A DNA stretch of 64,000 nucleotides from Candidatus Eremiobacteria bacterium (GCA_963758295.1 CAVWUU010000003.1:160001-224000); one strand, 5' to 3'; counted from the first letter of the stretch, positions 10,784 to 52,827 are shown. Numbers and translations: made by a program. The notes: a model not told the origin generated them from the letters alone.

Positions 10784-10784
10784 A

Positions 10785-32988: not shown

Positions 32989-34404
32989 ATGGATTACCGT
33001 ACTTATGCATCGCCGTTCTCTTGGAGATACGGCAGAGCCGAGCTACGCTCGCTTTTTTCCGAGGAAGAACGCCGGAAGCTTTGGCGCGCGGTATGGGTTG
33101 CGCTCGCGGAAGCTCAGTCGCGCAAAGGCCTTGTCTCGGCCGAAGAAGTTGAGGATCTTCGTGCGCACGCCGGCGACATCGATATTGAAGCTGCGCTCGC
33201 AATTGAACGCGAGATCCATCACGATCTCATGGCGGAGATTCGCGTATTCGCGTCGCAAGCGAAGACCGGCGGCAAAAAGCTGCATCTCGGCGCGACTTCG
33301 ATGGACATCGAAGATACGGTCGAGACGTATCGCCTGCGCCTCGCGCTTGCGATGGTCGGCGCTAATCTGCGCGAGCTTCTTGCGAGTTTTGCCGGCCGCG
33401 TCCGGCGGCACAGCGATCTCGTCACCATGGCCTTCACGCATTTGCAGCCGGCCGAACCGACGACCCTCGGGTACCGGCTTGCCGTGTACGCTCAGGATCT
33501 GCTGATCGACGACACAAATCTGCGATTCGTCTTCGAGCAGCTTACCACCAAAGGGCTGCGCGGCGCCGTCGGTACGGCGGCTTCATACGAGCATCTGCTC
33601 GACCATAGCGGCACGTCGGGTGAATTGGAAGTGTTTGTGCTGGACCGGTTCGGCTTGCAAGCGCGAGACATCAGCACGCAAACGTACCCGCGCAAACTCG
33701 ACTATCTTTTGCTCTCGGCGCTTGCGGGCGTCGGCGCGTCGCTTTCGAAGTTTGCGGCCGACATTCGCATCCTCAGCAGCCCCGAATTCGGCGAGGTCGC
33801 CGAGCCGTTCGGAAAATCACAGGTCGGCAGCTCGGCGATGCCGTTCAAACGCAATCCCATCATTTGCGAACGCATCGATTCGCTTGCGCGCCTGCTTGTC
33901 GGCTACTCCGACGTCGCGTGGCAGAACGCCGCGACCAATTATCTGGAGCGGACGCTCGACGATAGCGCGAACCGCCGCACGATTCTTCCCGAAGCGTTCC
34001 TTTGCGCCGACGAAATCATTACGCTTGCTCGAAAAGTAATCGACGGTTTGCGCGTCGAGGAACGTCGCATTTCGCATAATCTGCGCACCTACGGACCGTT
34101 TGCCGGCACGGAAGCGGTTATGATGGAAGCAGCGCGTGCGGGCGGCGACCGCCAAGAACTGCACGAGCAGATTCGCAGTGCGGCGATGGAGGCGTGGGGA
34201 GCACTCGCGCGCGGCGAAGACAATCCGCTCTCGCAAACGCTGGTCGAGGATAAAGCCTTAACCGCGTTGCTCGATCCGGCGGAAATTCGCCGCCTGCTCG
34301 ATCCCGGCAAACACGTCGGCACGGCGCCGGTGCGTGCGCGGGCGCTAGCCGACCGAATCGACGCGACTCCCGAGTTTCCGAAACAACGCACCGTAACCGT
34401 CTAA
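32989..34404 (+). CDS. purB: Adenylosuccinate lyase
   Basis: HLGATS.DI, FTHLQPA.PTT, GSSAMPFKRNP, LERTLDDSA.RR. Confidence 0.95.
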   Translation: MDYRTYASPFSWRYGRAELRSLFSEEERRKLWRAVWVALAEAQSRKGLVSAEEVEDLRAHAGDIDIEAALAIEREIHHDLMAEIRVFASQAKTGGKKLHLGATSMDIEDTVETYRLRLALAMVGANLRELLASFAGRVRRHSDLVTMAFTHLQPAEPTTLGYRLAVYAQDLLIDDTNLRFVFEQLTTKGLRGAVGTAASYEHLLDHSGTSGELEVFVLDRFGLQARDISTQTYPRKLDYLLLSALAGVGASLSKFAADIRILSSPEFGEVAEPFGKSQVGSSAMPFKRNPIICERIDSLARLLVGYSDVAWQNAATNYLERTLDDSANRRTILPEAFLCADEIITLARKVIDGLRVEERRISHNLRTYGPFAGTEAVMMEAARAGGDRQELHEQIRSAAMEAWGALARGEDNPLSQTLVEDKALTALLDPAEIRRLLDPGKHVGTAPVRARALADRIDATPEFPKQRTVTV

Positions 34405-34425: not shown

Positions 34426-35629
34426 GTGAACAAAGGCATCGAAATCGCCCGCGGTAAGACGAAAGTGCTGCACGAGTATCCGGGACAGCCGGATCAGCTG
34501 GTGGTCGCGCAAACCGACTCGATCTCCGCCGGCGACGGTGCTCGCCGCAACGAGATTCCGGGGAAAGGTCGGCTTGCGGCGCAGACGACGGCGCGCGTGT
34601 TCCGGCTGCTGAATCTTTGCGGATTGCCGACGCACTACCTCAACGGCGGCGAAGACGACGACAATAACGAGATGCTCGTTCGCCGATGCAACATGATTCC
34701 GCTCGAGGTCGTCGTTCGCGGTGTCGCGGCCGGCTCGTTCGTGAAGCGCAACCCCGGCATTCAGCGCGGCGCCTTGCTCGTACCGCGCGTCATGGAGTTC
34801 TTCTTCAAGGACGACGCCAATCACGATCCGATGATCGCCGCCGACGAGATCGTCTCACGCAATATCGCAACGCCGCAGGAAGTCGGCGCGATGACCGAAC
34901 TCGCGCGGCTCACTTTCGAGATTCTTTCGCACGCCTGGCGCAAACGCGACGTGCTGCTGGTGGATGTGAAGGTCGAGTTCGGGCGGTTGACGGCAGGTGA
35001 AAATAAAGGCCAGCTGGTCATCGCCGACGTCATCGACAACGATTCATGGCGCATTTGGCCGCAAGGGCGCGAAGATCTGATGCTGGACAAGCAGATGTAT
35101 CGCAACCTCCCCGAAGTCACGGCCGAAGCGCTCGATCGCGTCAAGAGACTCATACGAACAGGTTGCCGATCTGGTCGGCACGTTTCCGGTGATGCGGCCC
35201 GGAATGGCTGCGGTTATAGCGGATCACCCCGATCGCATGAATCACGCGAATGCCGTCCTGCAAACGCTCGCGCAGCTCGGACTTCCGACCATCCGCCACG
35301 TAGCGAGCCCGTCGCAGACGCCCGGCTACGTGCTGCAACTGGTCCAGCAAATGGAGGCGACCTTCGCGCGTCTATTCTTCGTTGCGGTTGGTGAGAACGA
35401 CAGCTTGCGCGCGATGCTCGAATCGGCGTCCTCTTCGCCCGTGTTCGACGGCAACGCGGAAGCGCAACACGTAGCGATTCAATGCGCGAAAGTTCTTGGA
35501 CTTGAAGACACGGTCTTATACGGCCGCACGTTGTTAATGCAGGCGAATGCGCGTTCGGCGATCTTACACGCCGACGCGATGATGCAGCAGCAGGCCGGGC
35601 AGCCGGGTCCCGGAGCCGTTCTTGGTTAG
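34426..35629 (+). CDS. purC: SAICAR synthetase fused to a degenerate PurE-like domain (PAICS architecture; frameshift near 35146)
   Basis: GKTK, ISAGDG, MIPLEVVVR, FKDD..HDP, DVIDNDSWRIWP, DKQMYR. It continues in the next frame as DSYEQVADLVGTFPVMRPGMAAVIAD... to the stop at 35629. Confidence 0.88.
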
Positions 35630-37931
35630 TTTCGCGGTAGAAGGGCGAAACGACGAAACGCTGCGCACCGCGGCCGCGAAGGCGGGCGTGGCGCTGCGGC
35701 CCGACGAGCTTCGGCGCATCGCACAAACGTTGCGGCGCGACCCCACGATGGTCGAGCTTCAAGCGTTCGACGCGCAATGGAGCGAGCATTGCAGCTACAA
35801 GTCTAGCCGCCATCACCTAAAGAATCTGCCGACGAGCGGCACGATGGTTGTGCTCGGACCGGCCGAGGATTCGGGGATCCTCCATCTCGGGGAACATCGC
35901 GGCGAACGATACGGAATCGTCATCGCGCACGAGTCGCACAATCATCCCTCGCAAGTCGTTCCCTTTGAGGGAGCGGCCACCGGCATCGGCGGCATCGTTC
36001 GCGACGTGCTGTGCATGGGTGCCGAAGTCATCGCCGTCGCCGATCCGCTGCGCTTTGGAAAAATCGATCCGGGAACGCATCAGCGGTATGTTGCCCAAGG
36101 CGCCGTTGACGGCATCAGCGCGTATGGGAACGCGATCGGCGTTCCGAACATCGCGGGAGACGTATATTTCGATGAACGCTTTGACGACAATTGCCTAGTC
36201 AACGTCGTGGCGCTCGGAATCGTCAAAGAATCCGAAATCATCCATTCGTATGCGCCGCGGGGCGCCGACGGCTGGGACATGATTCTAGTCGGCAAAGCGA
36301 CGGATCCGAGCGGATTCGGCGGCGCCTCGTTTTCGTCGGTAACGCTCGACGCGGCCGACGAAGAGTCGAACAAAGGCGCGGTTCAGGTTCCCGATCCGTT
36401 CTTGAAGAACGTGCTGATGCGCGCAAGCTATCGCGTATTCGGACTTCTGCGTGAAAAGAAGGTGACCGTCGGATTCAAAGACCTCGGAGCCGGCGGCATC
36501 ATGGGCTGTTCGGCGGAGATCACGTCGGCCGGCGGTTACGGCGCGCAAATCGATCTCGACAAGGTGAACGTCGCGATCGAAAACATGCCGCCGGAAGTCA
36601 TCGCAATCGGCGAAACGCAGGAACGCCTCATCTGGGTCGTTCCGCCGGAAGTCACGCCTGAGATTCTGCGCATTTACAATCAAGAGTTTACGCTTCCGCA
36701 GATCGCTTATAACGCCCGTGCCGTCGTGATCGGGAAAGTGACGGAAGACCGCCGTTACGTGTTGCGCTTCAACGGCGAAGTCGTGATGGAAGTCGACAGC
36801 GAATTTCTTACCGGCTCGATTCGCGACGAATTGCCGTTCGACGACGTGCCCTCAGTCGATCATCAAATCGTCCGGCCTCTCGTCACCGGCATGCAGCTTG
36901 AGGAGATGCTCGAGCGCGTGCTGGCGCATCCCGACGTGTGTTCCCGCGAACCGCTGTATCGCCGGTACGACAGCGTCGTGCGCGGCCGCACCGTCGTCGC
37001 GCGCGGCGAAGGCGACGCGGGCGTCTTGGCGCCGGTTCCCGGGTCGCCGCTTGGCATGGCTCTCAGCGTTGCGGGCAATCCGCGCTTCGCGAAAGTCGAC
37101 GTCGCCGGCGCAGCGCGGCACGCGGTGTACGAAGCCGTTCGCAAGGTGACGGCCGTCGGCGCTCGAGCCATCGGCTTGACGGATTGCTTGAATTTCGGTA
37201 ATCCTCGCAAAGTCGAGCACTACAGCGAATTCGTTACGGCCGTGAAAGCGCTTGGATCCGCCGCGCGTGAATTCGAAACACCGTTCGTTTCAGGCAACGT
37301 CAGCCTGTACAACGAATCCGCATCCGGCAAAGCTATCCCGGCGTCGCCGGTCGTCGCTTGCCTCGGAACGATTCAAGACGTTTCCAACGTCGTTACAATG
37401 CGCTTGAAACACGCCGGATCGGTACTGTATCTTGTCGGGCATCCGCAGGGGCGTCTTGGCGGGTCGGTTTTGGCAAGTATGCTCGGACGCAACGAAGAGC
37501 ATTTGCCGCACGTCGACTATGAAACGGCGAAGGCGCATCACGAATTCATCTGGCAAGCCTCGCAAGCGCGATTACTGCGCGCGGTGCATTCGATCGGGAA
37601 CGGCGGCCTTGCTGCTGCCGTCTGTGAAATGGCGTTTGCCACGATTCGCAGCGGTCACGCGCACGTCGGCGTGCAGATCGACGACGCCTGGCAGTGGACG
37701 CACGGCTCTGTCGGTAATCTTGAAGCGTTGTTCAATGAGGCCGGCGGTTTCATCGTTGAGGTCGCAGCGCATGACGTTGAAACCTTCGAGGGACTCGCGG
37801 ACAACGTGGACGGCGTTTACGAAATCGGCGTCACGATAGAACAGCCGGTCGTCGCGATCGACGACGAAGCGTTCGACCTGCGCCGTCTGTACGAAATTTG
37901 GTCTAAGCCGCTCGAGGAGGTTTATCCGTGA
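35622..37931 (+). CDS. purL: Phosphoribosylformylglycinamidine synthase subunit PurL (small type)
   Basis: WSEHCSYK, ESHNHPS, GAATGIGG, DLGAGG, ETQER, TDCLNFGNP, SGNVSLYN. Confidence 0.95.
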   Translation: MVSFAVEGRNDETLRTAAAKAGVALRPDELRRIAQTLRRDPTMVELQAFDAQWSEHCSYKSSRHHLKNLPTSGTMVVLGPAEDSGILHLGEHRGERYGIVIAHESHNHPSQVVPFEGAATGIGGIVRDVLCMGAEVIAVADPLRFGKIDPGTHQRYVAQGAVDGISAYGNAIGVPNIAGDVYFDERFDDNCLVNVVALGIVKESEIIHSYAPRGADGWDMILVGKATDPSGFGGASFSSVTLDAADEESNKGAVQVPDPFLKNVLMRASYRVFGLLREKKVTVGFKDLGAGGIMGCSAEITSAGGYGAQIDLDKVNVAIENMPPEVIAIGETQERLIWVVPPEVTPEILRIYNQEFTLPQIAYNARAVVIGKVTEDRRYVLRFNGEVVMEVDSEFLTGSIRDELPFDDVPSVDHQIVRPLVTGMQLEEMLERVLAHPDVCSREPLYRRYDSVVRGRTVVARGEGDAGVLAPVPGSPLGMALSVAGNPRFAKVDVAGAARHAVYEAVRKVTAVGARAIGLTDCLNFGNPRKVEHYSEFVTAVKALGSAAREFETPFVSGNVSLYNESASGKAIPASPVVACLGTIQDVSNVVTMRLKHAGSVLYLVGHPQGRLGGSVLASMLGRNEEHLPHVDYETAKAHHEFIWQASQARLLRAVHSIGNGGLAAAVCEMAFATIRSGHAHVGVQIDDAWQWTHGSVGNLEALFNEAGGFIVEVAAHDVETFEGLADNVDGVYEIGVTIEQPVVAIDDEAFDLRRLYEIWSKPLEEVYP

Positions 37932-38698
37932 GCCGCCGCATTGCGGTCCTCGTTTTTCCGGGAACGAATTCGGAAGAAGAAACGCTCATGCTTCTGCGCG
38001 ACTGCGGCGGCGACGCCCATCTCGTGCACTGGAGCCGGGCCGACATGCTGCCGCATTTTGACGCGTACGTTCTGCCGGGCGGATTTGCGTACGAAGACCG
38101 CATCCGGGCCGGCGCGATTGCCGCGCACGAGCCGATGATGGATCACGTGATTGCGGGTGCTCGAGCGGGAAAACTCGTCTTCGGCATTTGCAACGGCGCG
38201 CAGATTTTGCTCGAGGCCGGCCTGATACCGGGAACCGGCGAAGTCCGGCGGCCGACCGCGGCATTTACCCGCAACGGCCCCGTGCCGCATTTTGTTTGCA
38301 CGCACACGCACGTAAAGCTGAAGATCGATCCCGCGCGTTCCCCCATCACGGCATCGCTCTCGAAAGACGCGTTGATCCCGGCATGGGCCGCGCACGGTGA
38401 AGGCCGCTTGGCGGCGAACGAGACGGAGCTGCAGAAACTCGAGGAAGGCGGTCATGTCGCCTTCGTGTACGCGCATCGCAACGGGCGCGTCGATGCATCG
38501 GCCGTGCCCAACCAATCGGCGCTCGGCGCAGCGGCGCTTATCAACAAACCGGGCAACGTGTTAGCGATCATGCCGCATCCCGAGCGCGACGGCTGGAGCT
38601 TCAACCATCCCGATCAGCGCGGAAAGCACGCGATCCTCGAACCCTCCGGCGGCTCCGTGCTTTTTCAAAGCTTCGTGAACGCGGTGACCCTGCGATGA
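37928..38698 (+). CDS. purQ: FGAM synthase glutaminase subunit
   Basis: VFPGTN, PGGFAYED, GICNG, AHGEG, MPHPER. Confidence 0.95.
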   Translation: MSRRIAVLVFPGTNSEEETLMLLRDCGGDAHLVHWSRADMLPHFDAYVLPGGFAYEDRIRAGAIAAHEPMMDHVIAGARAGKLVFGICNGAQILLEAGLIPGTGEVRRPTAAFTRNGPVPHFVCTHTHVKLKIDPARSPITASLSKDALIPAWAAHGEGRLAANETELQKLEEGGHVAFVYAHRNGRVDASAVPNQSALGAAALINKPGNVLAIMPHPERDGWSFNHPDQRGKHAILEPSGGSVLFQSFVNAVTLR

Positions 38699-39138
38699 AA
38701 GATCGCGCCGTAGCGATTTCACTGAAGATTCCCGACAACGAAGCGTATACCACGCTCACCGCGCTTCGCCGTCTGGGAGTCGGGGTCGAAAAACTGGAGC
38801 GCAGCGAGATTTGGCAAGTCGAAGATCGCGGCGACGAAACGACGTTTCTTTCACGCATCGAGAGTAACGAGACCATTTTCAATCCAAACAAGCACCGCCT
38901 TACGATCGTCGAGGGTTCCCAGCCGCGCGACGGCGAGGTATGGATCGAAGAACTCGGGCGCCACAACGAAGTGCGCGAACATCTTGGCGGAAAGGTCATC
39001 CCCGGCATCGGAAATGCGCGCCGGTACGTAGGCTGGCGAATGCTGCAAGCCGACGGCTCGCCCGCCGGAGCCAACGTACTCCGCGCCGCCGTGGAGCAGC
39101 TCCTGTGCAACCCGGCCATCGAAAAACCAATCTACTAG
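38695..39138 (+). CDS. purS: PurS-like protein with two tandem PurS repeats
   Basis: Follows purQ. Repeat 1 is SLKIPD..A.T.L.AL.RLG...IFNP; repeat 2 ends EQLLCNPAIE, like the PurS LL.NP.IE motif. Confidence 0.65.
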   Translation: MKDRAVAISLKIPDNEAYTTLTALRRLGVGVEKLERSEIWQVEDRGDETTFLSRIESNETIFNPNKHRLTIVEGSQPRDGEVWIEELGRHNEVREHLGGKVIPGIGNARRYVGWRMLQADGSPAGANVLRAAVEQLLCNPAIEKPIY

Positions 39139-39145
39139 AGGCAGA

Positions 39146-40168
39146 ATGAATCGACCGTATACCATTGCGACGCTAGGGTCGCACTCGGCCCTGCAGATTC
39201 TCAAGGGTGCGCATGACGAAGGTTTCAAGACCCTCGCTATTGCGAATCGCGAAACGGAGCGGCTCTACCGGTCGTTTCGTTTCATCGACGAAGTCATCGG
39301 CGTCGACAAGTATTCGGAGTTTCTTTCGCTCATCGGCGAACTCGAACGCCGCAAAGTCATCATCGTTCCGCACGGATCCTTCGTTGCGTACTTGTCGCTG
39401 GAAGAGCACAAGCAGATGACGGTGCCGTACTTCGGCAACAAAGCCGTGCTCGATTGGGAAGCAAGCCGCGAACTTCAACGCGACTGGCTGACGCGTGCGG
39501 GAATCACGATGCCGCGTCAGTTCAAGAGCGGCAAAGAGATCGACCGGCCCGTCATCGTGAAGCTCTACGGAGCGGGCGGCGGTAAAGGGTATATGTTCAT
39601 CCGCGACGCTTCCGACTTCGAAGCGCGGACTGCACATTTGCACGAACAGTTCACGATCCAGGAATACATCATCGGCGTTCCGCTTTACATCCATTATTTC
39701 TATTCGCCGATCGAAGACAAGTTGGAAATCATGTCGATGGACCGGCGCTACGAAACGAACGTCGACTCGCTCGGACGCATTCCGGCGGCCGCGCAAGAAG
39801 GCATGGACGTGAGCCCGTCCTACGTCGTGGTCGGCAATCAGCCGGTAAGCTTGCGCGAATCGATGCTTGCCGAAGCGCTGCGCATGGGTGAAAACGTGGT
39901 GCGCGTGAGTAAAGAAATTTGCGGGCCCAAGGGTCTCTTCGGAGCATTTTGCATCGAGACGATCATCACGCCGGACATGCAATTTTACATCATGGAGATT
40001 TCGGCCCGTATCGTCGCGGGAACGAACTTGTTCATCGACGGGTCGCCGTACTCGTACCTGAATTATTCTGAACCGATGTCCACCGGACGCCGCATCGCGC
40101 GCGAGATCAAGAACGCACTTCTCACCAACAATTTGCGTTTAGTCCTTGATGACTCGAGCAAGCTTTAG
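39146..40168 (+). CDS. purP: PurP-family ATP-grasp AICAR:formate ligase (archaeal-type FAICAR synthetase)
   Basis: IATLGSHSALQILKGA.DEGF, VPHGSF, GGKGY, DRRYETNVD, VVGN.P..LRES, EISARIVAGTN, PMSTGRRIAREI. Confidence 0.9.
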   Translation: MNRPYTIATLGSHSALQILKGAHDEGFKTLAIANRETERLYRSFRFIDEVIGVDKYSEFLSLIGELERRKVIIVPHGSFVAYLSLEEHKQMTVPYFGNKAVLDWEASRELQRDWLTRAGITMPRQFKSGKEIDRPVIVKLYGAGGGKGYMFIRDASDFEARTAHLHEQFTIQEYIIGVPLYIHYFYSPIEDKLEIMSMDRRYETNVDSLGRIPAAAQEGMDVSPSYVVVGNQPVSLRESMLAEALRMGENVVRVSKEICGPKGLFGAFCIETIITPDMQFYIMEISARIVAGTNLFIDGSPYSYLNYSEPMSTGRRIAREIKNALLTNNLRLVLDDSSKL

Positions 40169-41300
40169 CCCCAAGACCCTGCTGCGCGCGGCGCGCGGGC
40201 TAGCGCCGGCGCTGCTGGCGCTAATTCTCGTGCCGGCGCCCGCCGGCGCGACCTTGGTTGCCGACCCGCAAGTGTTATACGCGCAAATGAAAAGCGCATA
40301 CGATAAAGCGGGCGCGAACGGCTGGGACTTCCACGATCAGGAAGTCTATCTTTCGACGATCTTCAACGCGGGACGAGCGTATTCGCTGCAACGGCCAAGC
40401 GACGCTGCATATGGCGAAATTGCAACGCTGACCGTGCAAATCGGCAGCTCGCTGCATTTCAACCCGCTTACCAATCATGACGCGACCGCGTGGTACGTGC
40501 GCGAAGCCGCCGAGTGGGTCACCAAGAATTCGACCGACAAGCAGCTGCTGGACGGTGCTCAGGCGCTATTGCAGCGCGTCAATTCGGAAGAAGATCCCGA
40601 AGCGTTAGCACGGCTTGCGGATCAAGACGCAAAGGCCAACGTCGACGCATATCCTCACAACGTCGATTCGTCTCTGCAAGAGGTCGAGGCAAATTGGCGC
40701 TCGTGGCTGCTGACCCACGACGCCTCGTGGCGTTCTCTCGCGCTCGAGCGCGCGTCGCAGCCGGATTTCCCGCTCGCTCATCTGCCGACGTCCTGGGGCC
40801 CCGAGTTCCTTCAGTCCGCAAACAACGCCGCATCCGGCGTCGACGGCTTCACCTCGGGCGATCAGAAGAACGGCAAGATCATCACGGAACGCGTGAAGAG
40901 CCTTCCCGAACTGCGCGTCATTGCGAGCGTCAAAGCGGTGCCGCACGACGTCTACCTCTCGACGCTTGCGCCGGCCGACGAATACTTCGGACGCATGGGC
41001 TACTCGGTGCTTGGCATTCAGAACGAGCTCAAGCACATCAACTTCATGCTCGACTATAAGTACGGCAATCGCGAAGCTTCGCAGACGCTCCTCGTCGCCG
41101 AAGCGATCGACGACATGCACAAGGTCTATCCGCGCGACCGCGACATGCCGAAGCTGCTGCTCTCGTGCATGACGACGTTAGACCGAATGACGAGCGGCGA
41201 CACGAAAGCGGAATCGTCGCATTTGCGATCGATTTTGACGGTCGAATACCAGGATTCGCCCGAAGCGCGAAAGGTCTTAAACCCCGAGGCAGCATCGTAA
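40146..41300 (+). CDS. Secreted alpha-helical protein of unknown function
   Basis: Signal peptide LAPALLALILVPAPAGA; 384-aa ORF with host-like codon usage. Confidence 0.75.
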   Translation: MMTRASFSPKTLLRAARGLAPALLALILVPAPAGATLVADPQVLYAQMKSAYDKAGANGWDFHDQEVYLSTIFNAGRAYSLQRPSDAAYGEIATLTVQIGSSLHFNPLTNHDATAWYVREAAEWVTKNSTDKQLLDGAQALLQRVNSEEDPEALARLADQDAKANVDAYPHNVDSSLQEVEANWRSWLLTHDASWRSLALERASQPDFPLAHLPTSWGPEFLQSANNAASGVDGFTSGDQKNGKIITERVKSLPELRVIASVKAVPHDVYLSTLAPADEYFGRMGYSVLGIQNELKHINFMLDYKYGNREASQTLLVAEAIDDMHKVYPRDRDMPKLLLSCMTTLDRMTSGDTKAESSHLRSILTVEYQDSPEARKVLNPEAAS

Positions 41301-41338
41301 TACACTTCTTGTAGAAGCCTGTCCACGGAGGTGCCGGG

Positions 41339-42685
41339 ATGGATGTCGTTATCGCCGACCGCATTCAATTTGCGTTCACGATCATGTTCCATTACCTCTT
41401 TCCCATCACGACGATGGGACTCGTTCCGTTCGTAGCTCTTTACACGATCAAGGCGGCGCGCGGCGATACGGAATCGGCCGCTGCGGCGGCGTTCTGGACG
41501 AAAATTTTTGCGATAAACTTCGCAATCGGCGTCGTTACCGGGATTCCCATGGAATTTCAGTTCGGCACCAACTGGGCGGCGTTTGCCGCGCGCAGCGGCT
41601 CGGTCGTCGGGCAGCCTCTGGCTATGGAAGGCATCTACGCATTTTTCGCCGAGTCGATTTTCCTCGGCGTTTTGTTTTATGGACGCGACCGTCTGCCGGG
41701 CGCATTGCATGCGGCGTCGGCCGTTCTTGTGTGGTTCGCGGCGTGGCTGTCGGGCTTTTTCATTACGGTCACCGATGCGTGGATGCAACACCCCGTCGGC
41801 TATCGCGTAGCCGCTGGGGGCCAAATCGAAATGACGAGCCTGGCGTCGGTGATCTTCTCGCCGTTCGCCTGGTGGCAATACGTGCACGTCATTACCGGAG
41901 CGCTCGTGACGGGCGGCTTCGTCGTTGCCGGCATCGGCTCATACTACTTGCTCGCGCGCCGTGAGACGTCGCTCGGACGGCGATTTGTCCGGTCCGGCAT
42001 AATCGTCGCACTGATTTTCTCGCTGCTTGCGGTCTTTCCGACGGGCGACCGCAACGGTGCAAACGTCACGCAGTATCAACCTATCAAACTTGCCGCCATG
42101 GAAGGGCTTTTCGAAAGCTCGAACGGCGCGCCGCTTGCGATCATCGGCATGCCCGATACGAAGAACCACAAACTCATCGATCCCGTCCTCGTTCCCGACG
42201 TTTTAAGCTTTCTCGCATACGGCAACTTCAACGCGCCGGTAAAAGGCTTGCGCGGCTACGCCACGGAGCTGTGGCCACCCGTAGAACTGACGTATTACGC
42301 ATATCACGTTATGGTGGGGCTCGGCACGATCTTCGCCGGCGTTGCGGCGCTCGGGGTGCTGCTGCTTTTGCTCAAACGGCTCTTCCAAACGCGCTTGATG
42401 CTCTGGCTGATCATGCTGGTGATGCCTTTCCCGTACGTTGCGAACGAAGCGGGTTGGGTCACAACTGAAGTGGGACGGCAGCCGTGGATCATTTACGGCA
42501 TCATGCGGACCGCCGATGCGACGTCGCCCACCGTCGTTACGGGCGAGACAATTTTCACGACGATCGGTTTTGCAGGCATGTATTTCTTGCTTGGCGTGCT
42601 GTTCTTATACTTAGTCCTGCGGGAAATCGGCAGCGGTCCGAGTGCGGCCGGCGAACACGGCGGAGTCGTGGAGGCGATGTCATGA
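41339..42685 (+). CDS. cydA: Cytochrome bd ubiquinol oxidase subunit I
   Basis: RIQFAFTIMFHYLF, GIPMEFQFGTNW, WMQHP, QPIKLAAMEG, GWVTTEVGRQPW. Confidence 0.95.
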   Translation: MDVVIADRIQFAFTIMFHYLFPITTMGLVPFVALYTIKAARGDTESAAAAAFWTKIFAINFAIGVVTGIPMEFQFGTNWAAFAARSGSVVGQPLAMEGIYAFFAESIFLGVLFYGRDRLPGALHAASAVLVWFAAWLSGFFITVTDAWMQHPVGYRVAAGGQIEMTSLASVIFSPFAWWQYVHVITGALVTGGFVVAGIGSYYLLARRETSLGRRFVRSGIIVALIFSLLAVFPTGDRNGANVTQYQPIKLAAMEGLFESSNGAPLAIIGMPDTKNHKLIDPVLVPDVLSFLAYGNFNAPVKGLRGYATELWPPVELTYYAYHVMVGLGTIFAGVAALGVLLLLLKRLFQTRLMLWLIMLVMPFPYVANEAGWVTTEVGRQPWIIYGIMRTADATSPTVVTGETIFTTIGFAGMYFLLGVLFLYLVLREIGSGPSAAGEHGGVVEAMS

Positions 42686-43668
42686 GCATCACGGCCTTCG
42701 TCGTTATCGCCATAATGCTCGCTGCATATGCGGTTCTCGACGGATACGATCTGGGCGTCGCTTCGATTGCACCACTCGTTGGAAAGACCGATAGCGAGCG
42801 GTTCGCCTCCATGCAGGCCATCGGCCCGTTCTGGAACGGGAACGAAGTGTGGCTCATCGCTGCAGGTGCGGCGCTTTTCGCGTTGTTTCCGCGCGCGTAT
42901 GCTTCGGCGTTCTCAGGCTTTTATCTGCCGTTCATGGTGATTCTGTGGCTGCTGATGTTTCGCGGCGTCGCGTTGGAGCTGCGCTCGCATTTCCCCAGCG
43001 AGATGTGGCACACGTTTTGGGACGCGTGCTTTTCTGCCGCAAGTACGCTGCTGGTTCTCATCTTTGGCGTGGCACTCGGCAACTTGATTCGCGGATTGCC
43101 GCTCGACGACAAAGGCTTCTTTCAGGGCACGTTCGCGTTTTTACTCAACCCATACGCATTGCTTGTCGGTCTTTTCGCCGTCGTAGCGCTTGCGCAGCAC
43201 GGCAGTGGATTTTTGTTGCTTCGGCTCGAGGGAGCGCCGGCGGACCGCGCGCGCAAGATGCGCCCGCGCCTTCTGGCCGGAACGCTCGCGTTTTTTGTAG
43301 CGGTCTCGGCCGTAACCGCCCACATGCGTGGAATGCCGGGCACGCCCTGGGGCGTTATCGTACCGTTGCTAGCGTTGGCGGCGTTGGCATGGACGTGGTT
43401 TGAAAACGGCCGCGCGCGATACTTGCAAGCGTTTGTCGCCTCCTCGCTCTTCATCGCGCTGTTGGTCGTTACGGCCGCGATGACGATGTATCCGTATTTG
43501 CTCCCCTTGTATCCGGCAGGCGGGGGCCTCTCGATCTACGATGCGTCGCCGTCGCCTACGGCGCTCGCCAGCGCACTGACGGTCACGATCGTCGGTCTGT
43601 GCGCCGTCCTGATTTACGGCAGTTGGGTCTGGCGCCGTTTGGCGGGAAAGGTCCGCGTTGGCGAATAA
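42682..43668 (+). CDS. cydB: Cytochrome bd ubiquinol oxidase subunit II
   Basis: LDGYDLG, IGPFWNGNEVWLI, FPRAYA, FRGVALE. Confidence 0.95.
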   Translation: MSITAFVVIAIMLAAYAVLDGYDLGVASIAPLVGKTDSERFASMQAIGPFWNGNEVWLIAAGAALFALFPRAYASAFSGFYLPFMVILWLLMFRGVALELRSHFPSEMWHTFWDACFSAASTLLVLIFGVALGNLIRGLPLDDKGFFQGTFAFLLNPYALLVGLFAVVALAQHGSGFLLLRLEGAPADRARKMRPRLLAGTLAFFVAVSAVTAHMRGMPGTPWGVIVPLLALAALAWTWFENGRARYLQAFVASSLFIALLVVTAAMTMYPYLLPLYPAGGGLSIYDASPSPTALASALTVTIVGLCAVLIYGSWVWRRLAGKVRVGE

Positions 43669-44815
43669 CCGCGCTGGCGTGAACGACAACGCCGCTCGAG
43701 CCCTCGAAAAATACGACCGCTCAAAGCTCACTCTTTGTTCCATCGGAAGCCATTCGGCGCTGGAAGTGGCCTACGGCGCGCGCGCACAGGGCTTGCGGAA
43801 TCTTGTCGTAACTGCGAAGGGCCGCGAACGCACGTACACGGAGCATTACCTGCGCAAGGAATCGCCGGTACCGCGCGGATGCGTTGATTCGGTCCTGGAA
43901 CTGGAGAAGTTCACCGACCTCTTAAACGACGGCGTCCAACAGCGGCTGCTGGACGAAAACGTGATCTTTCTTGCCAACCGGTCGTTCGAAGTCTACCTGC
44001 ACCAAAAATTCAGCTACGACGAAATCGAGAACGGCATGCGAGTGCCGTTTTTCGGCAACCGCTTCTTGCTGCGCGCGGAAGAACGCGACGAAGCCTCAAA
44101 TCAGTATTCATTGATGCAGAAGGCGGGCATCCGTCATCCGCAGCAGTTCGATTCGCCGGATCAGATCGACCGGCTAGTGATGGTGAAAGCGCCGCACGCC
44201 AAAGTCAGCTTCGAGCGAGCCTTCTTTGTGGTGTCGTCGCCACAGGAGTACCGTGAGGTCAGCGCCCGGCTCATTCGCGACGGAATGCTTACCGAATCCG
44301 GTTTACGAGACGCCGTCATCGAGGAGTACGCGCTCGGACCGTCGGTCAACCTGAATTTCTTTTATTCGCCGATTCTCGGCGAGTTAGAGCTTAGCGGAAC
44401 GGACACGCGGCGCCAAACCAATCTCGAGGGATTCCGTAACGTCCCGCCGTCGGTATTCGAGGCGCTGCGCAACGTCCCGATGCGTCTGGAAGAGGCGGGA
44501 CATATCGCCGCGACGCTTACCGAGTCGACGCTGGAGAAGGCCTTCGAGATGGGCGAGCGATTCGTTGCCGCCGCACGCGAAGCCAATCCGCCCGGCGTAA
44601 TGGGACCCTTCGCGCTGCAGTGCGTAATCGTCGCCGGACCCCCCAAAGAATTTGTTTGCTACGATGTGTCGTTGCGCATCCCGGGATCGCCCGGCACCCG
44701 CTACACCCCGTATTCGGCATACCGATGGGGGCGCGATGTGTCGGTGGGCGAGCGAGTCGCAATGGAGCTCGTAATGGCCCGCGACGCCGGCCGGCTGGGG
44801 GAAATTCTTACCTAA
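43658..44815 (+). CDS. Second, divergent PurP-family ATP-grasp ligase
   Basis: IGSHSALEV..GA, NRSF.VY, PFFGNR.LLRAEER, FERAFF, TDTRRQTNLEG, GPFALQ, DVSLRIPGSPG. Confidence 0.85.
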   Translation: MANNRAGVNDNAARALEKYDRSKLTLCSIGSHSALEVAYGARAQGLRNLVVTAKGRERTYTEHYLRKESPVPRGCVDSVLELEKFTDLLNDGVQQRLLDENVIFLANRSFEVYLHQKFSYDEIENGMRVPFFGNRFLLRAEERDEASNQYSLMQKAGIRHPQQFDSPDQIDRLVMVKAPHAKVSFERAFFVVSSPQEYREVSARLIRDGMLTESGLRDAVIEEYALGPSVNLNFFYSPILGELELSGTDTRRQTNLEGFRNVPPSVFEALRNVPMRLEEAGHIAATLTESTLEKAFEMGERFVAAAREANPPGVMGPFALQCVIVAGPPKEFVCYDVSLRIPGSPGTRYTPYSAYRWGRDVSVGERVAMELVMARDAGRLGEILT

Positions 44816-45347: not shown

Positions 45348-45384
45348 GAAAAGGCCCGCAGCGATGCGGGCCTTTTTCTTTTTG
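45348..45384. terminator. Bidirectional intrinsic terminator
   Basis: AAAAGGCCCGCA-GCGA-TGCGGGCCTTTT-TCTTTTT between convergent genes. Confidence 0.85.
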
Positions 45385-45386
45385 TC

Positions 45387-45683
45387 TTACGAGCGGCGCA
45401 TTTCGCCGGCGCGGTAGCGGTAGACGATCCGGCCTTTGGTGAGGTCGTAGGGCGACATCTCCAGATCGACACGATCGCCAAGAAGAATCTTGATGCGATG
45501 GCGGCGGAGACGGCCGGCGAGGTGGGCGAGCACGGTGTGCCCGTTCTCCAACTCAACGGCGAAGGTCGTGCTTGGGTAGATCTGACGAACGGTGCCAAAA
45601 ACCTCGAGAGGCGCCTCTTTGGCGGGCTCAGTCGGGCGATCGCTGGGAGGGCGCGGAGGCGCCGAGCGGCGACGGCCGGCTAT
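45387..45683 (-). CDS. infA: Translation initiation factor IF-1 with an N-terminal extension; probable ATA start (absent from the ORF track)
   Basis: [66 protein letters not shown]. There is no in-frame ATG/GTG/TTG upstream of the core before a TAA. Confidence 0.9.
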
Positions 45684-45785
45684 GGCCGGCCTGCTTTCAA
45701 TGAAGTCATCCCCGAGAGTATATACGCAACCGGGCTGTGGGGGAAGGCCTTATGGTGGTGCGAACCAACTGCGCCGGAGGAAATA

Positions 45786-46328
45786 ATGGCTACGCAATCG
45801 TTACAAGAGCGCCAGGGCGCAATCACGTTCAAGGGCGGCCCGATGACGCTCGTAGGCCCGGAACTAAAGGCCGGCGACACGGCGCCGGACTTTGTCCTTA
45901 CCGGGCAGGATCTCTCCGTCAAACGGCTCGACGATCTGCTGGACGGGGGCAATCGCGCGGCGATGCTGATCGTTGTCCCCTCGCTGGATACGGGCGTCTG
46001 CTCGACTGAGTCGCACAAGTTCAACGCGCGAATGGGCGAGTTGCCGGCGGATGTGAAAACATATGTCGTCAGCATGGACCTGCCGTTTGCGCAGGCCCGC
46101 TGGTGCGGCAACGAAGGCGAGGTCAAATTTGAGACGCTTTCGGACTATCGCGACCATAGCTTCGGCCGGAACTACGGTCTGCTGATCAAAGAACTGGGTT
46201 TGCTCGCTCGCGCCATTGTAGTGATCGGCGCTGACAAAACCATCAAATACGTGCAACTTGTTCCGGAAGTCGCGAGCGAGCCGGATTACGATGCAGCCAT
46301 CACGGCGGCTCAAGCGGCGGCGAAGTAG
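45786..46328 (+). CDS. tpx: Thiol peroxidase
   Basis: ITFKG.P.TL.G, VPSLDTGVC, SMDLPFAQARWC, EPDYD. Confidence 0.95.
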   Translation: MATQSLQERQGAITFKGGPMTLVGPELKAGDTAPDFVLTGQDLSVKRLDDLLDGGNRAAMLIVVPSLDTGVCSTESHKFNARMGELPADVKTYVVSMDLPFAQARWCGNEGEVKFETLSDYRDHSFGRNYGLLIKELGLLARAIVVIGADKTIKYVQLVPEVASEPDYDAAITAAQAAAK

Positions 46329-46373: not shown

Positions 46374-47918
46374 ATGCCCCCCACCGTTTTCATTTTCGAC
46401 TTTGGCGCGCAATATAGCCAACTGATAGCGCGCCGCTCGCGCGAGCTCGGCGTTTACAGCGAGATCGTTCCTTACGACACCACGTGGTCCGCGATCGCCG
46501 GACGCAGTCCGGCCGCGATCATTCTTTCGGGCGGTCCCGAAAGCACGCTCGTGCCGGGCGCACCCGACATGGACCCAGCCGTTCTAAATAGCGGCTTGCC
46601 GATTTTTGCAATCTGTTACGGCATGCAACTGATCGCGCGTCACAACGGCGCCGAACTGGTGAAATTGGATCACGCGGAATATGGCCCCGCGATGCTGCAC
46701 GTCGATAAGCGGGACGCTCGCATTTTCGACGGCGTTCCGGCCGACTCACGCGTTTGGATGTCGCACGGCGACTCGGTCGTGAAACTTCCCCCGGGATTCG
46801 AAGAACTTGCGTCGACCGAACGCTGCAACGTTGCGGCGATAGGCAATGCCGAACGCAAAATCTACGGAACGCAGTTTCACCCCGAAGTCGTGCACAGCGA
46901 ATACGGCCGGCTGATGTTGGCGAATTTTCTGCATGGGGTAGCCGGGCTCGCAAGCGACTGGGAGATGGAATCGTACGTCGATCGCGCAATCGAAGAGATT
47001 CGCGAAGCGGTCGGTCAGGACAAAGTCATCTGCGCGCTCTCCGGCGGCGTCGATTCCGCGGTCGCCGCCACGCTTGTATCACGTGCGATCGGGGAACAGC
47101 TGACCTGCGTCTTCGTCGATCACGGACTGCTTCGCAAAGGCGAAGCGCAATCCGTGATCGAGGCGTTCCGCGATATCTTGCATTTGAATCTCGTCGTGGT
47201 CGACGCGCGCGAACGGTTCTTGACAAAACTTGCGGGCGTCATTGACCCCGAGCGCAAGCGCATCATCATCGGCCACGAGTTCATCTCCGTGTTCGAAGAA
47301 GAAGCGGCGAAGATTCCCGGGGTGAAGTATCTCGTTCAGGGAACGCTTTATCCCGACGTCATTGAATCCAAAACGCCGCAAAGCAAGGCGGGACACAAGA
47401 TCAAGTCGCATCACAACGTGGGCGGCTTGCCCGAGAAGATGAACTTCAAGCTCATCGAACCGCTGCGCGCGCTCTTCAAGGACGAAGTCCGCGCGCTCGG
47501 ACGCGTTCTAGGGCTGCCGGAACACATTGTGGCGCGCCAACCGTTTCCCGGACCGGGACTTGCGGTTCGCATCATCGGTGACATCACCGACGAGCGCTTG
47601 GAAGTGGTTCGCAACGCCGATGCGGTTGTGCGTGAAGAGATCGACAATGCCAAAGACTTGCAGCCGCATCCGTGGCAGTACTTCGCCGTGCTTACGCCGG
47701 TGCAAAGCGTCGGTGTGATGGGCGACGGCCGCACGTACGCGAACCTGGTCGCTGTACGCGCAATTACGAGCGAGGACGGCATGACGGCCGATTGGGCGCG
47801 CTTGCCGCACGAACTCCTGGAGCGAATCTCGACGCGAATCGTGAACGAAGTGCCCGGCGTGAATCGCGTGGCGTACGACATCACATCGAAGCCGCCCGCA
47901 ACGGTGGAGTGGGAATAG
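46374..47918 (+). CDS. guaA: GMP synthase (glutamine-hydrolysing)
   Basis: DFGAQY, ICYGMQ, QFHPEV, LSGGVDS, IKSHHNVGG, SKPPATVEWE. Confidence 0.97.
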   Translation: MPPTVFIFDFGAQYSQLIARRSRELGVYSEIVPYDTTWSAIAGRSPAAIILSGGPESTLVPGAPDMDPAVLNSGLPIFAICYGMQLIARHNGAELVKLDHAEYGPAMLHVDKRDARIFDGVPADSRVWMSHGDSVVKLPPGFEELASTERCNVAAIGNAERKIYGTQFHPEVVHSEYGRLMLANFLHGVAGLASDWEMESYVDRAIEEIREAVGQDKVICALSGGVDSAVAATLVSRAIGEQLTCVFVDHGLLRKGEAQSVIEAFRDILHLNLVVVDARERFLTKLAGVIDPERKRIIIGHEFISVFEEEAAKIPGVKYLVQGTLYPDVIESKTPQSKAGHKIKSHHNVGGLPEKMNFKLIEPLRALFKDEVRALGRVLGLPEHIVARQPFPGPGLAVRIIGDITDERLEVVRNADAVVREEIDNAKDLQPHPWQYFAVLTPVQSVGVMGDGRTYANLVAVRAITSEDGMTADWARLPHELLERISTRIVNEVPGVNRVAYDITSKPPATVEWE

Positions 47919-47920
47919 GG

Positions 47921-49189
47921 ATGCGAATTCTCGTCGTAGGAAACGGCGCGCGTGAGGATGCGCTCTCGTGGCGTTTGGCGCAGTCGCCGTCGTGCGAAGC
48001 GATCTTCGCTGCACCGGGTAACGCCGGTACGGCTCTGCGCGGCACGAATTGGAATATCTCCGCGACCGACGGCAAAGCGATCGTCGAAAGGTGCCGCGAG
48101 GAGAACATCGATCTCGTGGTGCTCGGTCCGGAGTCTGCAATTGCGGCGGGAGTCGGTGACCGCTTACGAGACGCCGGCTTCGCGGTGTTCGGCCCGAACC
48201 GCAGCGGGGGCCGTCTTGAGTCCAGCAAAGTCTTCTCCAAACGCTTCATGGAACGCCACGGCGTTCCGACGGCGCGCGCGATGATCGTCCACTCGGAACC
48301 GAGCGCGATGAAAGCGCTCGACGAGTGGCCGGGAGGCGGTGTGGTTATCAAAGCCGACGGTCTCGCCGCAGGTAAAGGCGTCGTAGTTTGTGACGACGTC
48401 GATACGGCCCGCGGTGTGCTCAAAGAATGGTATGGCGCGAGTAAAATTCCCGGCGGCGGCAGCGATGTGCTGCTCGAAGAAAAATTAACCGGACGTGAGG
48501 TGAGCGTGTTTGCGCTCGCAGACGGCCGCGCGATGGTTCCGCTCGCCGCGGCGTGCGATTACAAACGAGCCGGCGACGGTGATACCGGTCCGAACACCGG
48601 CGGAATGGGCGCGTATTCGCCGCCCCTTGATTTCCCGATCGACATGTACGATCAGGTGCGCGAGCGCATTCTTGCGCCCGTCTTACGCGGATTGCTCGCC
48701 GAAAGTGAAACCTATATCGGCGTTCTGTATTGCGGCCTTATGTGGACCGAGAACGGCCCCTACGTCATCGAGTTCAACGCGCGCTTTGGGGATCCCGAAA
48801 CCCAAGTGCTAATGCCGCGCATTCACGGCGATTTCGCGCAATTGCTCGCTTCGGCGGCGGAGGGCGCAATGGACTTGAGCCTCGCAACGCTGGGCAACGA
48901 CTGCTGCGTGGGCGTGGTGCTTGCAACGAGCGACTATCCGCGCTCGAGCACGCCGCTGCGAGGTTTGAATTCGAACGTAGCGTTGCCGGGTAATGCGGTC
49001 GTGTTCTGGGGCGGCAGCACCGTTGAAGAGGGCACGGTCAATACCGGCGGCGGTCGTGTGTTGACCGTAACCGCTTGCGGCTCCAACGTCACCGATGCCC
49101 GCGAAAAAGCGTATGCCGCCGTCAAGACACTCGCCGGGAGAATCGGCACCACGGACTTGACGTACCGCACCGACATCGCGAAGTTCTAA
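47921..49189 (+). CDS. purD: Phosphoribosylamine-glycine ligase
   Basis: APGNAG, LESSK, KADGLAAGKGV, DGDTGPNTGGMG, EFNARFGDPE, GGRVL. Confidence 0.96.
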   Translation: MRILVVGNGAREDALSWRLAQSPSCEAIFAAPGNAGTALRGTNWNISATDGKAIVERCREENIDLVVLGPESAIAAGVGDRLRDAGFAVFGPNRSGGRLESSKVFSKRFMERHGVPTARAMIVHSEPSAMKALDEWPGGGVVIKADGLAAGKGVVVCDDVDTARGVLKEWYGASKIPGGGSDVLLEEKLTGREVSVFALADGRAMVPLAAACDYKRAGDGDTGPNTGGMGAYSPPLDFPIDMYDQVRERILAPVLRGLLAESETYIGVLYCGLMWTENGPYVIEFNARFGDPETQVLMPRIHGDFAQLLASAAEGAMDLSLATLGNDCCVGVVLATSDYPRSSTPLRGLNSNVALPGNAVVFWGGSTVEEGTVNTGGGRVLTVTACGSNVTDAREKAYAAVKTLAGRIGTTDLTYRTDIAKF

Positions 49190-51456: not shown

Positions 51457-52827
51457 ATGTGCGGGATAACGGGAATCTTTTCACCGGGGCGTGACGCGGC
51501 ACGCCTCGCGTATTTTGGGCTCTACGCGTTGCAGCACCGGGGCCAGGAATCGGCCGGTATTGCTGCAGCCGATGGAGGCACCATCCGCTCGCACAAAGAC
51601 ATGGGCCTCATCGGAGCGATCTTTGACGAAGAAAGTCTCACCGCGCTCGGCGGCCACATTTCAATCGGCCATACCCGGTACTCAACGACCGGTTCGTCGA
51701 TCGTCGTAAACGCTCAGCCGCTTCTGGAGCGGACCGAGCTCGGTGATTTTGCCTTCGCGCATAACGGCAACATCACCAATACCGACGAGATGCGTGCCTC
51801 GCTCGCGCCCAGCACGACACTTCAGGCCACCTCGGACTCCGAAGTAATGGCCAAGACGCTCGTCGAGGCTCGCGGATCGATGCTCGACCGGATCCGTCAG
51901 GTCCTCAGCGTGGCCCGGGGCGCATACTCGATCGTCCTCTGCACCGAAGATGAGCTCTTCGCATTCCGTGATCCGTGGGGCGTGCGTCCGCTATGCATCG
52001 GCACTTTCGGCGACGGCGGCTACGCGGTCGCTTCCGAATCGTGCGCATTGCCGACGATCGGCGCCCAGTACTTGCGTGAAATAGAAGCGGGCGAAATCGT
52101 CCGCATTACCGCGCAGGGGCTGGAGTCGTTCAAGACGCCGACCGACAACGCCCGGCCGGCGCTCTGCATGTTCGAATACATTTATTTCGCGCGGCCCGAC
52201 TCGAGTTTAAATGGCCGCTCGATCTACATGGCGCGCTACGAGATGGGACGTCAACTTGCAAAAGAGCATCCTATCGACGCAGACGTCGTCATGGCTGTTC
52301 CGGATTCCGCCGTTCCCGGCGGCATCGGCTATGCCGCACAAAGCGGCTTGCCGTACGTCGAGGGACTGATCAAGAACCGCTACATCGGCCGGACGTTCAT
52401 CAGCCCGGATCAGGGCATGCGTTCGCGAGGCGTGCAACTGAAGTTCAATCCCGTCGTAGAGAACCTCAAGGGTCAGCGTGTCGTGGTGGTGGATGACTCG
52501 ATCGTTCGCGGCACGACTACTCCGCGCATCGTTTCGCTACTGCGCGAAGCCGGCGCGAAAGAAGTTCACCTGCGCATCACTTCGCCGCCGATCAAGCACC
52601 CGTGCTATCTCGGCGTCGACATGGCAACGTACGACGAACTCATCGCGGCAAATTACACGGTCGAGGAAATTCGCCAAAAGACGGGCGCCGATTCTCTGGG
52701 CTATTTGAGTCTTGAGGGACTAATAGAAGCTAGCGGAAGAAAGGGCGGGGAGATGTGTCTCGGCTGCCTTACCGGCGAATACCCGAACGTCCCCGCCTCG
52801 CATGAAAAGCGCGTTCTAGCGGTTTGA
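51457..52827 (+). CDS. purF: Amidophosphoribosyltransferase
   Basis: MCGI, LQHRGQE, GHTRYST, FEYIYFARPDS, VVDDSIVRGTT. Confidence 0.97.
   Translation: MCGITGIFSPGRDAARLAYFGLYALQHRGQESAGIAAADGGTIRSHKDMGLIGAIFDEESLTALGGHISIGHTRYSTTGSSIVVNAQPLLERTELGDFAFAHNGNITNTDEMRASLAPSTTLQATSDSEVMAKTLVEARGSMLDRIRQVLSVARGAYSIVLCTEDELFAFRDPWGVRPLCIGTFGDGGYAVASESCALPTIGAQYLREIEAGEIVRITAQGLESFKTPTDNARPALCMFEYIYFARPDSSLNGRSIYMARYEMGRQLAKEHPIDADVVMAVPDSAVPGGIGYAAQSGLPYVEGLIKNRYIGRTFISPDQGMRSRGVQLKFNPVVENLKGQRVVVVDDSIVRGTTTPRIVSLLREAGAKEVHLRITSPPIKHPCYLGVDMATYDELIAANYTVEEIRQKTGADSLGYLSLEGLIEASGRKGGEMCLGCLTGEYPNVPASHEKRVLAV

Follow-up and report, generated by a model that had tools for sequence, protein, structure and literature searches.

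Two divergent archaeal-type PurP genes are a class-wide feature of the purine operon of Eremiobacteria and coexist with PurH

The window analyzed here is a stretch of 64,000 nucleotides (nt) of Candidatus Eremiobacteria bacterium (GCA_963758295.1 CAVWUU010000003.1:160001-224000, contig C3 of genome G000), a bacterium of soil type in the phylum Eremiobacterota whose genome is assembled to 3.0 Mb and 82% complete. A single long purine cluster runs along its + strand, and in it lie two genes of the PurP family: PurP1 (39146-40168, +), an ATP-grasp protein of 340 amino acids (aa) of the cluster Ib or "PurP II" type, and PurP2 (43658-44815, +), a protein of 385 aa of the cluster II or "PurP III" type. 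A sequence-only reading had proposed that two diverged archaeal-type PurP genes sit in a bacterial pur cluster, and family, subtype, and synteny bear this out. What is new is that a bacterial class with genomes of ordinary size has the Ib and II pair as a fixed feature, in which it coexists with PurH. purP has been called an archaeal signature gene; in the passages available from a 2019 survey, purP occurs only in Archaea among 1,403 complete genomes (PMC6486802). Public annotation already labels the homologues DUF1297 or 5-formaminoimidazole-4-carboxamide ribonucleotide (FAICAR) synthetase.

The genes ahead of PurP1 are those of ordinary purine synthesis. The first pur gene of the cluster is purB (adenylosuccinate lyase, 32989-34404, +; Pfam Lyase_1 and ADSL_C), in a position kept in relatives, followed by purC (phosphoribosylaminoimidazole-succinocarboxamide synthetase, 34426-35394, +; SAICAR_synt, 203.5 bits), purL (phosphoribosylformylglycinamidine [FGAM] synthase II, 35622-37931, +; AIRS, AIRS_C, and FGAR-AT_linker), purQ (FGAM synthase glutaminase, 37928-38698, +; GATase_5, 126.1 bits), and a gene for a 147-aa protein (38695-39138, +). 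The ATG of PurP1 has a GAGG motif 5 nt ahead of it. Three genes separate PurP1 from PurP2: unk384 (40146-41300, +), which overlaps the end of PurP1 by 23 nt and encodes a 384-aa protein with a signal-peptide-like N terminus and no Pfam or NCBIfam match; cydA (cytochrome bd subunit I, 41339-42685, +; Cyt_bd_oxida_I, 478.8 bits); and cydB (cytochrome bd subunit II, 42682-43668, +; Cyt_bd_oxida_II over residues 68 to 384 of the open reading frame [ORF]), whose ORF is listed from 42484, with a probable start, judged from the translation, at the Met at 42682 overlapping the cydA stop. PurP2 starts with TTG, preceded 6 nt upstream by GGAAAGG; an alternative GTG start at 43679 would give 378 aa, the length of most homologues.

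Both proteins are full members of the PurP family. DUF1246 and DUF1297 occur in order and cover each protein, with 144.1 and 226.7 bits in PurP1 and 113 and 177.4 bits in PurP2 (gathering cut-offs, 25 and 23.8 bits, respectively). In the Protein Data Bank (PDB), PurP1 matches P. furiosus PF1517 (E value, 2.4e-100) and M. jannaschii PurP (1.4e-85), being about half identical to the latter over nearly its full length (290 bits), and PurP2 matches M. jannaschii PurP (2.1e-60). Thus, the sequence-only identification of the ORF at 39146-40168 on the + strand as PurP holds, as does that of 43658-44815 as a divergent member, and the motifs named for the latter (NRSF, FERAFF, TDTRRQTN, and DVSLRIPGSPG) are all found in its translation.

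Archaeal PurP-like proteins are split into cluster Ia/Ib and cluster II in the text available from PMC3261824, while the corresponding part of the 2019 survey names groups PurP I, II, and III and adds IV (PMC6486802). According to the former, the marks of cluster I are the P-loop (K/R)GG(K/R)G at M. jannaschii positions 161 to 165 and Asn258, which contacts the carboxamide of 5-aminoimidazole-4-carboxamide ribonucleotide (AICAR); cluster II invariably carries His at 258 together with a glycine-free loop two residues longer; and His27 and Arg314, the formyl contacts, are retained in both (PMC3261824). With positions counted by hand on printed alignments to 2r7k, residues H13, S78, N231, S239, and R288 of PurP1 are equivalent to His27, Ser94, Asn258, Ser266, and Arg314. 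Its P-loop, GAGGGKG, has the same length and all glycines, with Gly at the first K/R of the consensus, and among 29 type I sequences G142, A143, G145, and G146 never vary. These residues and its closest structure, that of the cluster Ib protein PF1517, place PurP1 in cluster I. In PurP2, counted in the same way, H32, S109, S290, and R340 are equivalent to His27, Ser94, Ser266, and Arg314, and H282, which aligns to N258 of 2r7k, is invariant in 24/24 and in 56/56 type II sequences. The loop of PurP2 reads KVSFERAFF, with HMMER aligning "akvsferaff" to "arg--grgyf," a two-residue insertion, and E186 and R187 within it are conserved in type II. PurP2 therefore shows all three marks of cluster II (His at 258, the longer loop, and retention of His27 and Arg314) and belongs, as had been proposed, to the archaeal paralog class without established function.

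The residue split between type I and type II runs through the 56 family members and the two window proteins in the alignment. A further alignment by subtype took 43 sequences of type I and 56 of type II and left out the intermediate sequences P0135, P0142, and P0166. In both types, the positions that contact formate, ATP, and phosphate hold H, K, R, ES, and S with conservation of 95% or more, and among the contact residues common to both at 90% or more are S, H, Y, K, E, R, ES, and R. Twelve positions swap between two conserved states, namely (PurP1/PurP2) G77/R108, an inserted E186, Q172/E222, Y181/N231, E203/Q253, V228/E279, N231/H282, E271/Q321, E284/D336, A291/G343, T293/P345, and G299/gap. 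Twenty-one positions of type II are invariant over 24 diverse sequences. The conserved contact residues together with the switched conserved states indicate that PurP2 is constrained like an enzyme, with a remodelled pocket, and is not decaying. Q321 in PurP2 is no argument against activity, since the active M. jannaschii enzyme also has Gln there. As a separate observation, P0135, P0142, and P0166 combine the cluster II loop (ER.FF) and His258 with the cluster I C-terminal motif R.GGGTN; they fall at the base of the type I half of the tree and may represent an intermediate PurP group.

To trace the pair within the phylum, we sampled 201 genomes, in which the class of the window comprises families f1, f2, and f3. 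All 131 sampled class genomes other than G000 have two or more DUF1297 matches, and outside the class only 1 of 69 phylum genomes has any, a single one. Tallies include genomes flagged as unpublished (G128 and G178 for DUF1297; G128, G178, G208, and G215 for PurH, below), and the picture is the same without them; nothing else here depends on these genomes. That one match, L098 (G082:C110:11935-13002), is a single type I PurP of another class of the phylum, 46% identical to PurP1, outside any pur context, and grouping with Nanoarchaeia-type sequences; it represents either a separate acquisition or contamination. The PurP2 homologues carry the source names Candidatus Eremiobacteraeota, Baltobacteraceae, Aquilonibacter, and Vulcanimicrobiaceae, and Vulcanimicrobiota in a protein atlas.

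Could the pair be a redundant leftover of transfer with no current role, or PurP2 a decaying pseudo-enzyme? On paper the pair is dispensable given PurH and PurN, and the glycine P-loop has been lost in PurP2. However, both genes are intact in 131 of 131 class genomes, the best 120 matches of PurP2 are 81 to 100% identical to it, identity to the window copies across the class is 72 to 91% for PurP1 and 61 to 84% for PurP2, and the invariant type II positions given above hold in diverse sequences, all of which makes such a relic very unlikely.

Gene order is as stable as gene content. The order holA-purB-purC-purL-purQ-(147-aa gene)-PurP1...PurP2-guaA-purD is kept in 13/13 relatives examined from three families. 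guaA (GMP synthase, 46374-47918, +; GATase and GMP_synt_C) lies directly 3' of PurP2 in relatives without insertions and without the redoxin gene, and it is followed by purD (glycinamide ribonucleotide [GAR] synthetase, 47921-49189, +; GARS_N from residue 84 of an ORF listed from 47672, the probable start being just past guaA). PurP1 and PurP2 abut or overlap in seven of the relatives, including all four sampled members of f2 and f3. Between the purP genes, unk384 occurs alone in two relatives and with cydAB or other genes in four; these six are all members of f1, the unk384 proteins are 38 to 65% identical, and cydAB, found between the purP genes in two relatives, is at times missing beside them. 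The abutting genes in 7/13 suggest by parsimony that the adjacent state is ancestral and that the 3.5-kb gap in the window is a later insertion within f1, and the link of cydAB to the purP pair is therefore probably incidental. An oxygen-related link to the pair, of either cydAB or the redoxin gene that follows PurP2 here (45498-46328) and in three relatives, is possible but likewise looks incidental.

Beyond the phylum, the PurP family is small, with 474 clusters at 50% identity (E value ≤ 0.001) among 1.84 billion representatives. We used P0123, a type II representative with 49% identity to PurP2, to scan species genomes; the scan samples relatives of P0123 and not of the window proteins, so the resulting list of host taxa is no census. 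It gave 63 loci. Of these, 47 bear archaeal titles, including Micrarchaeota, Methanosarcinales, ANME-1, Nitrosotalea, and Bathyarchaeota, and the other 16 are titled as bacteria, with five Curtissbacteria, three Patescibacteria, two "Gammaproteobacteria," and a single record for each of Daviesbacteria, Saccharimonadales, Ardenticatenales, Anaerolineae, Desulfobacteria, and "bacterium." In 52 of the 63 loci, type II is accompanied by another PurP gene on its own strand; among the 11 without a partner, a contig end truncates 8, and the remaining 3 have space on either side. The order II then I is that of most archaeal loci (38 versus 14 under a scoring rule that miscalls the partial locus L090), while the order I then II, as in the window, is that of bacterial loci and two Micrarchaeota (L066 and L068). 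The pair lies within pur operons in Curtissbacteria, Saccharimonadales, a "Gammaproteobacteria" metagenome-assembled genome (MAG), Daviesbacteria, and the Micrarchaeota locus L066, together with purL, purQ, purM, purA, purB, purK, purE, purC, and guaA in varying order, and purA stands between the two purP genes in Curtissbacteria and Saccharimonadales. Among the 63 loci, L053 bears the title Desulfobacteria bacterium, yet its pair shares 72% identity or more with the pairs of ANME-1, Methanosarcinales, and Nitrosotalea and has the order II then I; this archaeal-like identity and order suggest either misbinning of a contig from an archaeon or a transfer of very recent date.

For the phylogeny we started from 179 sequences of at least 300 aa, comprising the PurPs of loci L030 to L106, the two window proteins, and 16 type I and 24 type II representatives drawn from 64 of at least 300 aa; thinning at 72% identity left 92 rows, to which 10 named rows were restored, giving 102. 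The careful IQ-TREE run used the site-homogeneous model LG+G4 on 377 columns, with seven rows of odd composition, and the tree is unrooted except that each paralog roots the other. PurP1 falls in a clade of 12 rows (ultrafast bootstrap 95/Shimodaira-Hasegawa approximate likelihood-ratio test 89) and PurP2 in a matching clade of 15 rows (99/92); both clades hold Eremiobacteria, candidate phyla radiation (CPR) bacteria, "Gammaproteobacteria" MAGs, Chloroflexota, and two Micrarchaeota (in type I, L066 and L068). Both are nested in larger groups of mostly archaeal or unnamed rows, which in type II have 24 rows (99/98) and 35 rows (100/98), and a quick tree agrees with the careful one. The phylogeny against archaeal PurP clusters, the check that the sequence-only reading had called for, thus finds both proteins nested among archaeal PurP sequences, each in its own subtype. 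The matching clades in both subtrees are good evidence that the two genes travel together. There is fair evidence from the tree for an archaeal origin of the pair, and a transfer of the pair as one unit would fit the topology. Our literature searches, which included the noisy term "purp" (retrieving "purpose" and "purple"), found no paper on the pair in bacteria.

The strict association of the two genes is shared with the archaeal pair of clusters Ib and II, that is, PF1517 (PDB 2R84-2R87) with PF0421 in Pyrococcus and the pairs of Sulfolobales and Pyrobaculum. The subtypes and diagnostic residues are the same, and the archaeal genes likewise strictly co-occur, are often adjacent, and are tied to pur genes; in the part of the 2019 survey available, PurP II and III are found in the same 61 archaeal operational taxonomic units (PMC6486802). 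The differences lie in the host, here a bacterium of ordinary genome size with a full PurH, PurN, and FolD; in the gene order, I then II against II then I in most archaeal loci; and in the inserted genes that set the window copies 3.5 kb apart. A closer likeness is with the pair of CPR/Patescibacteria (Curtissbacteria, Daviesbacteria, and Saccharimonadales) and Chloroflexota MAGs, which shares the clade in both subtrees and the I-then-II order in pur operons, most of its hosts having PurH or its halves. In contrast to the window, Curtissbacteria and Saccharimonadales have purA between the genes and genomes of about 1 Mb, whereas in Eremiobacteria an entire class, its genomes about 2 to 5 Mb in size, has the pair fixed.

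Does the pair stand in for a missing folate-dependent step? The sequence-only reading had stated that no purH, purN, purT, purO, or purM lies in the window, which is true, and had suggested that this bacterium may do without folate at the AICAR step, which does not fit the rest of the genome. purM and a fusion of a GNAT acetyltransferase domain with a PurN-type domain lie 0.6 to 3 kb beyond the window end, and purK is on contig C1. The PurN-type domain follows the GNAT domain at G000:C3:225941-227074, about 2 to 3 kb past the end, and matches PurN in two stretches totaling 134 bits, under the cut-off of 150.1. A full bifunctional PurH of 524 aa is encoded on contig C1 (PF01808, 324 bits; NF002049, 594 bits [cut-off, 402]); such a gene had been named by the earlier reading as half of what would overturn it. 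With its AICAR formyltransferase domain in place, the pathway is not folate independent. Two separate FolD (tetrahydrofolate dehydrogenase/cyclohydrolase) matches of near-equal score lie at G000:C4:1391590-1392066 and G000:C6:133446-133922. The whole-genome search proposed earlier for purH, purO, purN, and purT therefore gave purH and a PurN-type domain; PurO, Fhs, and a PurT above cut-off were not found in the genome. The second PurN-like match, at C3:91839, was considered as PurU, a source of formate, and proved to be fmt (218 bits, over cut-off).

The same holds across the class: 140 of the 141 class genomes sampled yielded PurH, the sole exception being 72% complete, and none of 61 yielded PurT. 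In other pair-bearing genomes, PurH or its two halves were found in 4 of 5 and PurO in none of those 5; a full-length PurN-like match was found in 8 of 12 and PurT in none of those 12. The full PurH here and throughout the class indicates that the pair adds to PurH and does not replace it. Since the pair is no simple replacement, it must supply something beyond PurH, the obvious candidates being formate use or folate independence, and its movement and persistence as a unit argue that the two proteins need each other.

We favor, with about even confidence, the reading that this archaeal-derived pair forms a two-protein, formate- and ATP-dependent AICAR formylase acting beside PurH. The pair would be a bacterial copy of the ancient archaeal Ib and II pair that crossed from archaea into bacteria as one unit and came to be fixed within the pur operon in the class Eremiobacteria; in the lineage of the window it would later have been split by unk384, a putative secreted protein, and cydAB. 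The two proteins would act jointly, most likely as a hetero-oligomer, and with formate and ATP as presumed substrates would formylate AICAR; the resulting FAICAR could then be closed to inosine monophosphate (IMP) by the cyclohydrolase domain of PurH. The outcome would be a folate-independent route to purine C2 next to the folate-dependent route through PurH. A purine role is argued for by the place of the pair in the pur operon of all 13 relatives and in pur operons of CPR, "Gammaproteobacteria" MAGs, and Micrarchaeota; joint action, by strict co-inheritance, abutting genes, and matching trees. Fhs was not found in the genome, so that no other entry for formate into purines is visible. Sulfolobus extracts incorporate formate into IMP from AICAR, and this organism is listed with only the Ib and II paralogs in the passages available from PMC3261824.

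E. coli offers a possible parallel for such an arrangement. There, the formate- and ATP-dependent PurT stands beside the folate-dependent PurN at GAR formylation, so an ATP-grasp formate user is likewise retained where an enzyme that depends on folate already serves a step of that kind. PurT differs in acting on GAR and not AICAR, in being a single protein, and in belonging to another ATP-grasp family; no PurT was found in the 61 class genomes.

Several observations weigh against a two-protein AICAR formylase. In the available portions of PMC6486802 and PMC3261824, FAICAR synthetase activity is reported only for the cluster Ia enzyme MJ0136, and PF1517 and PF0421 are each relayed as inactive as AICAR formyltransferase (PMC3261824). 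MJ0136 (EC 6.3.4.23, PDB 2R7K-2R7N) belongs to the same ATP-grasp fold family, and PurP1 shares the P-loop and the five contact equivalents with it; the same passages describe it as alone in its genome, working with PurO in a host without PurH1 (PMC6486802, PMC3261824). The NCBIfam PurP (FAICAR synthetase) equivalog models are built around such enzymes, and both window proteins score under every cut-off, PurP1 at best with 385.1 against 590 and PurP2 with 242 against 556. PurH, PurN, and FolD are present, leaving no pathway gap that would force the assignment. With the genome 82% complete, PurT, PurO, and Fhs count as not found and not as absent. Co-inheritance and adjacency, finally, suit two consecutive enzymes equally well.

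This last point leads to the main rival, in which the proteins are separate enzymes for two steps, PurP1 formylating AICAR with formate and ATP, and PurP2 closing FAICAR to IMP or formylating GAR in the manner of PurT. PurP2 keeps the phosphate- and formate-contact residues while the AICAR-carboxamide contact Asn258 has become His (56/56 type II), and it has gained the conserved residues R56, R108, R143, E186-R187, and E279. A cyclohydrolase was indeed raised because many pair-bearing archaea lack PurO and PurH2, and Archaeoglobi have the pair but neither PurN nor PurT, in the text available from PMC3261824; the missing PurT matches in the class and in the other pair-bearing genomes point the same way. 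Yet that source also calls the archaeal phyletic pattern imperfect (PMC3261824), and in the class neither step is missing, as PurH with its cyclohydrolase domain is found in nearly all genomes and a PurN-type gene is present. The other pair-bearing genomes, most of them with PurH or its halves and a full-length PurN-like match, tell against it too, and we regard two separate steps as rather unlikely.

Less probable still is that the pair does not formylate AICAR at all and is an ATP-grasp ligase system for another reaction linked to purine nucleotides, called PurP by homology to MJ0136 only. The lack of AICAR formyltransferase activity in the assayed cluster Ib and II proteins (PMC3261824, in the part available), the scores under all PurP equivalog cut-offs, and purA between the two genes in CPR operons are in line with this, and class-wide retention beside a complete PurH route would be odd for a plain duplicate function. 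PurP1, however, keeps H13, S78, N231, S239, and R288, all of the AICAR and formate contacts of MJ0136 listed in the available text, is close to M. jannaschii PurP over nearly its whole length, and has cluster Ib relatives in Sulfolobus, whose extracts turn AICAR into IMP using formate (PMC3261824).

A joint AICAR formylase may be spelled out further, though this fuller version is doubtful. Starting from AICAR, formate, and ATP, the enzyme would yield FAICAR or even IMP, with the cluster II His acting on the carboxamide, and the cassette would have passed from archaea to several bacterial phyla and been kept class-wide as a formate-fed, folate-sparing bypass of PurH. The same two-protein reading would explain why each Pyrococcus protein alone was reported inactive. 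What the cluster II protein does has been a question since 2008 to 2011, and the mesophilic bacterial copies should suit expression in E. coli purine mutants.

Structure prediction of a PurP1-PurP2 complex gave an ipSAE of 0.51 (runs, 0.54, 0.51, and 0.51) against 0.00 for the best of three controls, with at least 90% of contacts agreeing between runs, a partner pLDDT (predicted local distance difference test) of 85 to 86, and the verdict "weak support." In the calibration, the mark is reached by 116 of 157 solved complexes and by 2 of 215 mismatched pairs, and scores of 0.60 or lower hold only 18 of the 157 solved complexes and both passing mismatches. Because PurP homo-oligomers have been solved (2R7K and 2R84), the pass may only mirror homo-oligomer likeness; the prediction does not separate a hetero- from a homo-oligomer and carries little weight.

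The 147-aa gene keeps its place, with purQ before it and PurP1 after it, in each of the 13 relatives examined. The sequence-only reading had PurP1 preceded by purL-purQ-purS; purL and purQ, with purB and purC before them, are confirmed by Pfam, and purS is only weakly backed. The protein has no Pfam or NCBIfam match, and canonical PurS (PF02700) has no match anywhere in the genome. A profile of the protein and seven relatives (eight sequences) finds PurS MTH169 (1gtd) as its best PDB match (E value, 0.0041), and the motifs IPDN and NPNKH are invariant across the class, so that the protein is probably a very divergent PurS of double length.

Among the other features of the window, purF (amidophosphoribosyltransferase, 51457-52827, +; GATase_6/7 and Pribosyltran) lies downstream of purD. 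After PurP2, a strong terminator-like two-way hairpin (45348-45377) has a stem of 13 pairs, 7 of them G-C, and a run of T on each strand; it alone stands out in a promoter and terminator scan whose sites are no more numerous than in shuffles. An Rfam scan of the whole window at gathering thresholds found no ZTP or purine riboswitch, its sole matches being two tRNA genes side by side on the - strand (10711-10858). At the other end of the cluster, holA (29802-30788, +) is separated from purB by a gene for an AAA ATPase of 707 aa (30818-32941, +). In relatives with both genes in view, holA adjoins purB without this ATPase, one of them having another ORF there, and its weak NCBIfam matches include CDC48/PAN-type ATPases and, in part, the anti-phage ATPase IteA (37 bits).

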